From Escherichia phage ECO103 4-12-1: a DNA stretch of 64,000 nucleotides. A model generated the notes under the pieces. The model was not told where the DNA came from, did no database searches, and worked only from the letters and a program-made list of their open reading frames with translations. Within the stretch, counting starts at the first letter, position 1. Every line of letters begins with the position of its first letter. The translations under genes were made by a program, and so were the position numbers. This document shows, piece after piece, positions 63,255 to 64,000 of the stretch. The stretch lies in the sequence record OR844650. One strand, given 5' to 3'.

Positions 63255-64000
63255 TTATAAAATTACTTCACCAAAAATGCCATTGATATCACGTTCAATG
63301 ATGTATTCACCTTCATGTTCTTCTAAGAACTTTTTAATGGCTTCATTAACTTTAGGACGATGCATGTTGTTGAATGTTTCAGTACATCCGTCACCTTTTT
63401 CATAATAACCACTTTTGTGATGTGGATTACCGCAGAACGCAATTGTATGTGTAATACGTTCTAACTCAGCAGCAAGATGCCCCCCATTGTCTTTGTTAAA
63501 GAAAATGGAAATTTCATTTTTCCAAAATACTTCAACTTGATATATTTTTTTAAAAGAACTATTAATGCGTTTCAAACGCTTATCGTTATCACCTGCAATA
63601 CCGGCTTTATCTGATTCATTATATACATCGTTATGTATATAATAATAAGCTGTTTTGTCTTTTTTAAAACCACTTGGTGTTCTGTTCGGATGTCCTTGTC
63701 CTCGAAGGAATGCATTAGGTGTAATCTGAAACTCACCGAAATCAGGATCAATTATAGTTACTTTTGTATGTGCATTAATATAATTGGCTTTACTATAATC
63801 ATAATTAATATCAGTTCTTTTTTCCTTTCCTTCAGTGACGAATTGTTCTGTGGTTTTCGATTGTGCTTGCATACTGTTTTTAATAGCTCGCATTGGATGT
63901 CCACCACCAAACAAAAAATCCGAAGGTGTAATCTGAAACTCACCGAAATCAGGATCAATTATAGTTACTTTTGTATATGCATTAATATAATTGGCTTTAC
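63255..64000 (-). CDS. hypothetical protein with internal tandem repeat (5' end beyond window)
   Basis: frame stays open upstream of ORF-track start 63914; ~74-nt near-identical repeat at 63721-63795 and 63928-64000. Confidence 0.5.
   Translation of the reverse strand, partial: KANYINAYTKVTIIDPDFGEFQITPSDFLFGGGHPMRAIKNSMQAQSKTTEQFVTEGKEKRTDINYDYSKANYINAHTKVTIIDPDFGEFQITPNAFLRGQGHPNRTPSGFKKDKTAYYYIHNDVYNESDKAGIAGDNDKRLKRINSSFKKIYQVEVFWKNEISIFFNKDNGGHLAAELERITHTIAFCGNPHHKSGYYEKGDGCTETFNNMHRPKVNEAIKKFLEEHEGEYIIERDINGIFGEVIL

Follow-up and report, generated by a model that had tools for sequence, protein, structure and literature searches.

A near-identical 77-nt repeat in a homing-endonuclease-like gene of Escherichia phage ECO103 4-12-1 probably reflects a recombination patch between adjacent modules

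We analyzed a 64,000-nt stretch of DNA from Escherichia phage ECO103 4-12-1 (record OR844650; hereafter the window), whose last gene, on the minus strand, carries a direct repeat of 77 nt at 63717-63793 and 63924-64000. The repeat itself holds up, yet it is an ordinary feature: most likely a recombination patch shared by two modules in an incomplete homing-endonuclease-like gene model. The account that explains it best, and that we consider probable, is that the gene is modular and that the 77-nt core of its diverged adjacent modules was recently homogenized by recombination or gene conversion. The initial annotation had reported a near-identical repeat here, which was confirmed (76 of the 77 bases are identical); the site was correct, but the positions given for it were off by four bases. 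Its proposal that the repeat is a recent tandem duplication is unsupported as stated, because the modules are old and family-wide and near-identity is confined to the 77-nt core.

The 3' part of the gene occupies 63255-64000 on the minus strand (247 codons plus stop), and its 5' end lies past the window edge. The frame, whose stop codon is at 63255-63257, is open up to 63998 and reads ...KANYINAYTKVTIIDPDFGEFQITPSDFLFGGGHPMRAIKNSMQAQSKTTEQFVTEGKEKRTDINYDYSKANYINAHTKVTIIDPDFGEFQITPNAFLRGQGHPNRTPSGFKKDK..., then ~135 more residues. A suggestion that the gene is longer than listed and that the listed TTG start at 63914 is internal holds, since the frame is open to the edge and this TTG is internal, encoding the Leu of SDFLFGGGHP in the second of the two modules described below (module B). 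The TTG start should be left unannotated, and the gene model at the window edge is incomplete. Translation and homologues likewise bore out the claim that the repeat is in frame and codes for a protein module present more than once: read on the minus strand, the two copies each give KANYINA(H/Y)TKVTIIDPDFGEFQITP.

Copy 1 of the core lies inside module A and copy 2 inside module B, where the window edge cuts it, so that 77 nt is the visible length only. The copies are spaced 207 nt, or 69 codons, from start to start, and their single mismatch (G at 63770, A at 63977) is the non-synonymous H/Y change. A whole-window search allowing up to three mismatches found these two copies only in the 64 kb, with 0 expected from 100 shuffles. 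Tandem Repeats Finder reported no repeat at 63717-64000, as the resemblance extends over only 77 nt of the 207-nt period and the rest has diverged. In-register identity is 99% over the core and 40% across the next 48 nt, although both of these flanking 48-nt stretches still encode xxFLxGxGHPxR. Between the cores, also on the minus strand, a 130-nt stretch (63794-63923) runs from the C-terminal half of module B through the linker AIKNSMQAQS into the N-terminal half of module A; in the in-register comparison it has no similarly identical counterpart downstream of copy 1. The two copies show no synonymous differences across 24 shared codons, whereas either window module compared with other module subtypes shows 3-6 synonymous differences in 15-20 shared codons. 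Taken together, these counts indicate that the identity of the core is recent and arose at the DNA level rather than as a by-product of protein conservation.

The encoded protein is predicted to carry a tandem series of DNA-binding modules, each ~60-69 aa long and of the DUF723/DUF4379/CapR treble-clef type; there are at least two of them and probably three or more. Module A (63681-63857, minus strand; K48-R106; KTTEQFVTEGKEKRTDINYDYSKANYINAHTKVTIIDPDFGEFQITPNAFLRGQGHPNR) is complete and without zinc ligands, as defined by translation, alignment, and an AlphaFold model, and module B (63888-64000, minus strand; K1-R37; ...KANYINAYTKVTIIDPDFGEFQITPSDFLFGGGHPMR), defined by translation, is partial at the window edge. 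Alignment to the homologue P0005 sets the window module TIIDPDFGEFQITPNAFLRGQGHPNR opposite the canonical Cys module IICKEHGEFQQTPNSHLSGSGCPTC. All four zinc ligands (C-x2-H ... C-x2-C; C/H/C/C) are replaced by D/F/H/R in both window modules, in which the ligand positions read IIDPDFGEF...G(Q/G)GHP(N/M)R as against the canonical IICKEHGEF...GSGCPTC. Judged by homology, the window modules are DUF723/DUF4379-type treble-clef units with their zinc ligands replaced, a membership that comes through the homologues, the window protein itself falling below the curated Pfam threshold. Pfam and NCBIfam scans of the window protein gave no DUF723, DUF4379, or T5orf172 match, and sub-threshold Peptidase_C58/YopT matches in the same databases were rejected as spurious, being artefacts of the repeat's composition. 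The modules are modeled by AlphaFold at pLDDT 86-96 (module A at 93-96, as a beta-hairpin plus helices); the overall model has a mean pLDDT of 73, with lower values in the nuclease domain, and is of moderate confidence. A Foldseek search of the PDB with the predicted model returned nothing significant. The loss of the zinc ligands could mean that the protein is degenerate.

The C-terminal domain (63258-63671, minus strand; G110-L247) is likely a T5orf172/GIY-YIG-like nuclease, as judged by profile-profile comparison and its motif series. Profile-profile comparison was needed because BLASTP with this domain alone against the homologue P0033 was not significant (E 0.12). A profile of the domain matched the C-terminal domains of more distant homologues with 92.7% probability (E 4.3e-7), and two of those distant domains weakly match MUG113/T5orf172/GIY-YIG. 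The motif series Y..KxGI..R..E..DGxTE is retained. Across nearly the whole visible protein, residues 3-245 match positions 325-565 of the 576-position PHROG 681 'endonuclease' profile (E 2.1e-28). The family assignment of the window protein is thus transitive, running through homologues, profile-profile comparison, and the moderate-confidence model.

A large protein collection yielded 96 homologues, for which precomputed annotation lists PF05265 (DUF723) in 96 of 96 and PF14311 (DUF4379) in many. The best of them, P0001 (337 aa), is 70% identical across 100% of the query and has three modules followed by a C-terminal domain as in the window protein. In its gene the modules are spaced 207 and 192 nt apart and are 68-72% identical at the nucleotide level; with diverged modules at 207-nt spacing, P0001 indicates that the 207-nt period is the native module length. 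P0005 shares 53% identity with the window protein over 241 aa. A translated search found relatives in 443 phage records, labeled homing endonuclease, T5orf172 domain protein, or GIY-YIG nuclease. Modules without zinc ligands, with the pattern IIDPEYGEF...G.G(H/N)P.R, occur widely among metagenomic proteins (P0004-P0015, P0025, P0030, P0034, and P0038). They are mixed with canonical Cys modules within one protein in, for example, P0008 and P0027, and they co-occur with T5orf172-like domains as well as with differently built C-terminal domains.

By its database matches, the source of the window is an Asteriusvirus-like jumbo coliphage of the 121Q/PBECO4 group. Positions 50000-62000 match 40 phage records, the best at 90-97% identity, and none of these contains the whole window; the last 2 kb has a DNA match in only 6 phage records, compared with 40 for the preceding 12 kb. 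The contig of P0001 and Escherichia phage PBECO4 carry a diverged gene at the corresponding position, and in 121Q a nuclease-domain match lies ~1 kb away from the syntenic block. These comparisons describe a gene that appears free-standing and sporadic or variable at a conserved locus, the pattern by which homing endonuclease genes are recognized. Its syntenic orthologue in PBECO4, gp306 (YP_009150620; 379 aa, annotated 'endonuclease'), is probably P0005, as both are equally long and give an identical 53.1% match. The two loci share the order denV, two small genes, endonuclease, one small gene, AAA-like gene, and membrane-protein paralogue array, and the two proteins, 53% identical overall, have two differences in their last 50 residues. 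Unlike the window protein, however, gp306 has another N-terminal region and a last module that is a canonical Cys/His zinc module, and its gene has only a weak 24-nt internal repeat (75% identity), with no long near-identical nucleotide repeat found.

The neighborhood of the gene has features of its own. On the opposite strand, 62056-63081 (plus strand) encodes a second, different homing-endonuclease-like protein of 341 aa with three canonical Cys modules (DUF4379, E 1.9e-6; PHROG 559/681/9084) and a C-terminal 'EYDGEQHF' region that looks Vsr/DUF559-like by motif only. Escherichia phage WPEC5 lacks any match here, with its AAA-like gene ending 68 nt from the nuclease-domain ORF, and PBECO4 has only a 60-aa ORF at this position; the stretch is therefore apparently a separate insertion of ~1.2 kb (62014-63254). 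Between the two endonuclease genes, a 52-aa ORF (63078-63236, minus strand) shares 4 nt with the end of the 341-aa gene; it is a called gene in five of five Logan contigs and has no family match. Farther from the window edge, 61240-62013 (minus strand) encodes a 257-aa P-loop protein (GKGGVGKT) that matches PHROG 1250, of unknown function (E 3e-99), with weak AAA matches, and that is kept beside the endonuclease locus in WPEC5 and PBECO4. Seven small paralogous genes lie head-to-tail at 58765-61172 (minus strand), encoding hydrophobic products of 104-141 aa that are apparently membrane proteins. A 120-nt stretch occurs twice in this array (60703-60822 and 61044-61163, 79% identity), and the array is also present in WPEC5 and PBECO4, where its products are labeled hypothetical proteins. 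Across the window, GC content rises from ~31% (1-8000) to ~38-40% (12000-34000) and the sign of the GC skew switches near 34000 and again near 58000, a pattern consistent with gene blocks transcribed in opposite directions. A search of the 64-kb window for tRNA genes was negative.

WPEC5 is the only genome that has the sequence of the repeat gene at 100% identity, and it does so in two separate places. Window positions 63255-63761 correspond to L001 4001-4507, and 63693-64000 correspond to L001 7044-7351; module B, in the latter stretch, is 100% identical in DNA to the second module of CDS0126. In WPEC5, ~2.5 kb of additional modules separates these two matches, which overlap in the window by 69 nt within the repeat core. 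In its upstream part the window gene is 100% identical to the N-terminal modules of one endonuclease gene, CDS0126; in its downstream part it is 100% identical to the last module and nuclease domain of another, CDS0118/0119, and the two matches overlap in the shared core. This suggests that the window gene is a recombinant of the two. The WPEC5 genes involved, CDS0118-0126 (PV654397.1 48275-51860), share the module family and the 77-nt block with the window; unlike this scrambled locus, the window frame joins both ends uninterrupted. Over L001 (PV654397.1) 4001-7600, two endonuclease genes or their remnants hold ~14 modules between them, and the region also shows frameshifts, in-frame losses of 8 and 11 codons, an inverted module at ~4564-4971 (plus strand), and a nuclease-domain ORF detached from its modules. 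This locus is either a decaying endonuclease-gene array or a misassembled repeat. It could be partly misassembled and, if so, the case for a recombinant origin of the window gene is weaker.

WPEC5 also served as a proxy for judging how far identity extends upstream of copy 2, past the window edge. Module-to-module identity there stops after 78 nt, one base beyond the position of the window edge, and at this end 11 codons are missing in frame from the module B counterpart (KDA|SKANY), where the sequence reads …TCGCGTCTTTAATAAATTG…. After the core, WPEC5 already diverges from window 63794-63923 at the second base. Seven other WPEC5 modules contain the core block: in four it is the whole 77 nt at 99-100% identity, including one inverted copy, and in three just its 3' 46-51 nt. 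Several of the WPEC5 core copies sit at junctions with unrelated flanks, frameshifts, or deletions.

A recent duplication of a whole unit would have copied 63717-63923 in frame, with a second copy from 63924 to ~64130. Such an event would account for a spacing of exactly 69 codons at 76/77 identity, and the abrupt loss of identity at 63716/63717 would suit a duplication boundary. The putative second copy is visible for 77 nt only, and a suitable unit does exist, since module L6932 of WPEC5 joins the upstream half of module A to a Y-type core. However, we regard this history as rather unlikely: the post-core sequence in WPEC5, where identity ends one base past the edge, departs from 63794-63923 at its second base, relatives whose modules are 68-72% identical keep the native 207-nt spacing, and the core block is common to many modules with unrelated flanks, which argues for patchwise exchange. 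Selection on a nucleic-acid element within the coding sequence, such as an RNA structure or a target site for a nuclease or regulator, would also keep the 77 nt identical, and both the absence of synonymous changes over 24 codons and the exact reuse of the block in several WPEC5 modules are in keeping with it. We consider this very improbable, as the block is restricted to modules of this gene family and as the WPEC5 copies that are inverted (one) or in broken frames (several) fit recombination debris; an RNA structure was rejected, the predicted fold being no better than that of shuffled sequence (z = -0.41).

An assembly artefact, in which a short-read assembler working in a multi-copy repeat produced the A-B join or the module number and the true locus is longer and WPEC5-like, is in our view unlikely. 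Five Logan contigs, drawn from five sequencing runs, match the window at 99.96-100% identity from 61203-61784 on, and all of them end at 63714. Logan assemblies use k=31, and with this value the contig ends place a graph branch at 63685, which implies one more module copy outside the window that has the sequence from 63685 onward in common and belongs to the 'GHPK' type of WPEC5; module B, diverging at 63716, would instead produce a contig stop near 63746. Further module copies are probably present past the window edge. The 69-nt overlap of the two WPEC5 matches inside the repeat is, moreover, a possible place for a mis-join. Against a mis-join, the frame is intact and the modules-then-nuclease architecture is natural, like that of P0001 and PBECO4 gp306; misjoins need not preserve such an architecture, whereas real recombinants under selection must. 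In searches for sequence past 64000, the exact 157-nt junction pattern had 0 matches in viral_contigs, a 68-nt module-B-specific pattern had 0 matches in metagenome_contigs and viral_contigs, and no relative emerged from viral_contigs when the locus was sought by protein. Complete E. coli genomes likewise yielded nothing by megablast, and an exact-protein look-up of the neighboring 341-aa gene retrieved only short Logan contigs that end at the repeat.

A recombination or gene-conversion patch, the reading that we prefer, is the one that fits when the native 207-nt spacing, the near-identity of the core only, and the presence of the block in WPEC5 modules are considered together. Under this reading, old adjacent modules would have exchanged a short patch by homologous recombination or gene conversion, leaving the 77-nt core near-identical, and the difference between the window and WPEC5 forms may stem either from a deletion in this phage or from an expansion in WPEC5. 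By analogy with characterized members of the class, the tandem modules would together bind a long DNA target. The GIY-YIG-like domain, if it acts as in its family, would cut related phage genomes without the gene, and repair would then carry both gene and flanks over to the cut genome. Phage recombination acting on the repeated module DNA may then alter module number or order and, with it, target specificity.

The closest known systems are homing endonuclease genes (HEGs) of Vibrio phage ICP1 (gp174/gp165) and phage Helene (PMC10448857; Barth, Dunham & Seed 2023). Repeated CapR/DUF723/DUF4379 modules, as 'beads on a string', are common in T5orf172 homing endonuclease genes, and recombination at nucleotide repeats between the modules leads to domain swaps and to deletions and duplications that stay in frame (PMC10448857). 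The ICP1 and Helene HEGs resemble the window gene in their N-terminal tandem modules and C-terminal T5orf172-type nuclease (a likely assignment in the window gene), in being free-standing and patchy among related phages, and in recombination between module repeats (in-frame loss, gain, and swap), for which the window has matching footprints (PMC10448857). Set against what is described there, the window gene differs in lying in an Asteriusvirus-like jumbo coliphage, in having modules without all four zinc ligands, and in a nuclease domain too diverged for the Pfam T5orf172 (PF10544) model; homing and cleavage are putative here. In the part of the paper available, the CapR/DUF723/DUF4379 domains are spoken of only as zinc fingers (PMC10448857).

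The module type is also related to that of PLE CapR, a domesticated homing-endonuclease DNA-binding protein from a Vibrio cholerae phage satellite. As the title of the CapR study has it, this domesticated endonuclease reportedly tunes helper phage gene expression. Unlike PLE CapR, the window protein falls below the Pfam CapR model, for which P0033 scores 23.7 bits against a cut-off of 24.2, and it shows no sign of a CapR-like role.

An invariant block of 51-77 nt was found in ten modules of two phages, with one copy inverted. A more far-reaching interpretation would take the zinc-less modules as working, metal-independent DNA binders and this block as a built-in recombination 'splice point' for cassette shuffling, which strikes us as quite unlikely. 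If it were true, recombination would shuffle, delete, and add modules, the target specificity of the endonuclease would diversify fast, and the block copies would not be recombination debris.

In practical terms, the repeat hampers short-read assembly of the locus, and module counts in draft genomes of these phages need caution. Because module recombination has already been published for T5orf172 nuclease genes (PMC10448857), the finding in the window is ordinary. It adds a further case, now in jumbo coliphages, of modular homing-endonuclease genes rearranged via their own repeats, together with a zinc-ligand-free version of the module that is common among relatives, and neither of these alters current understanding.
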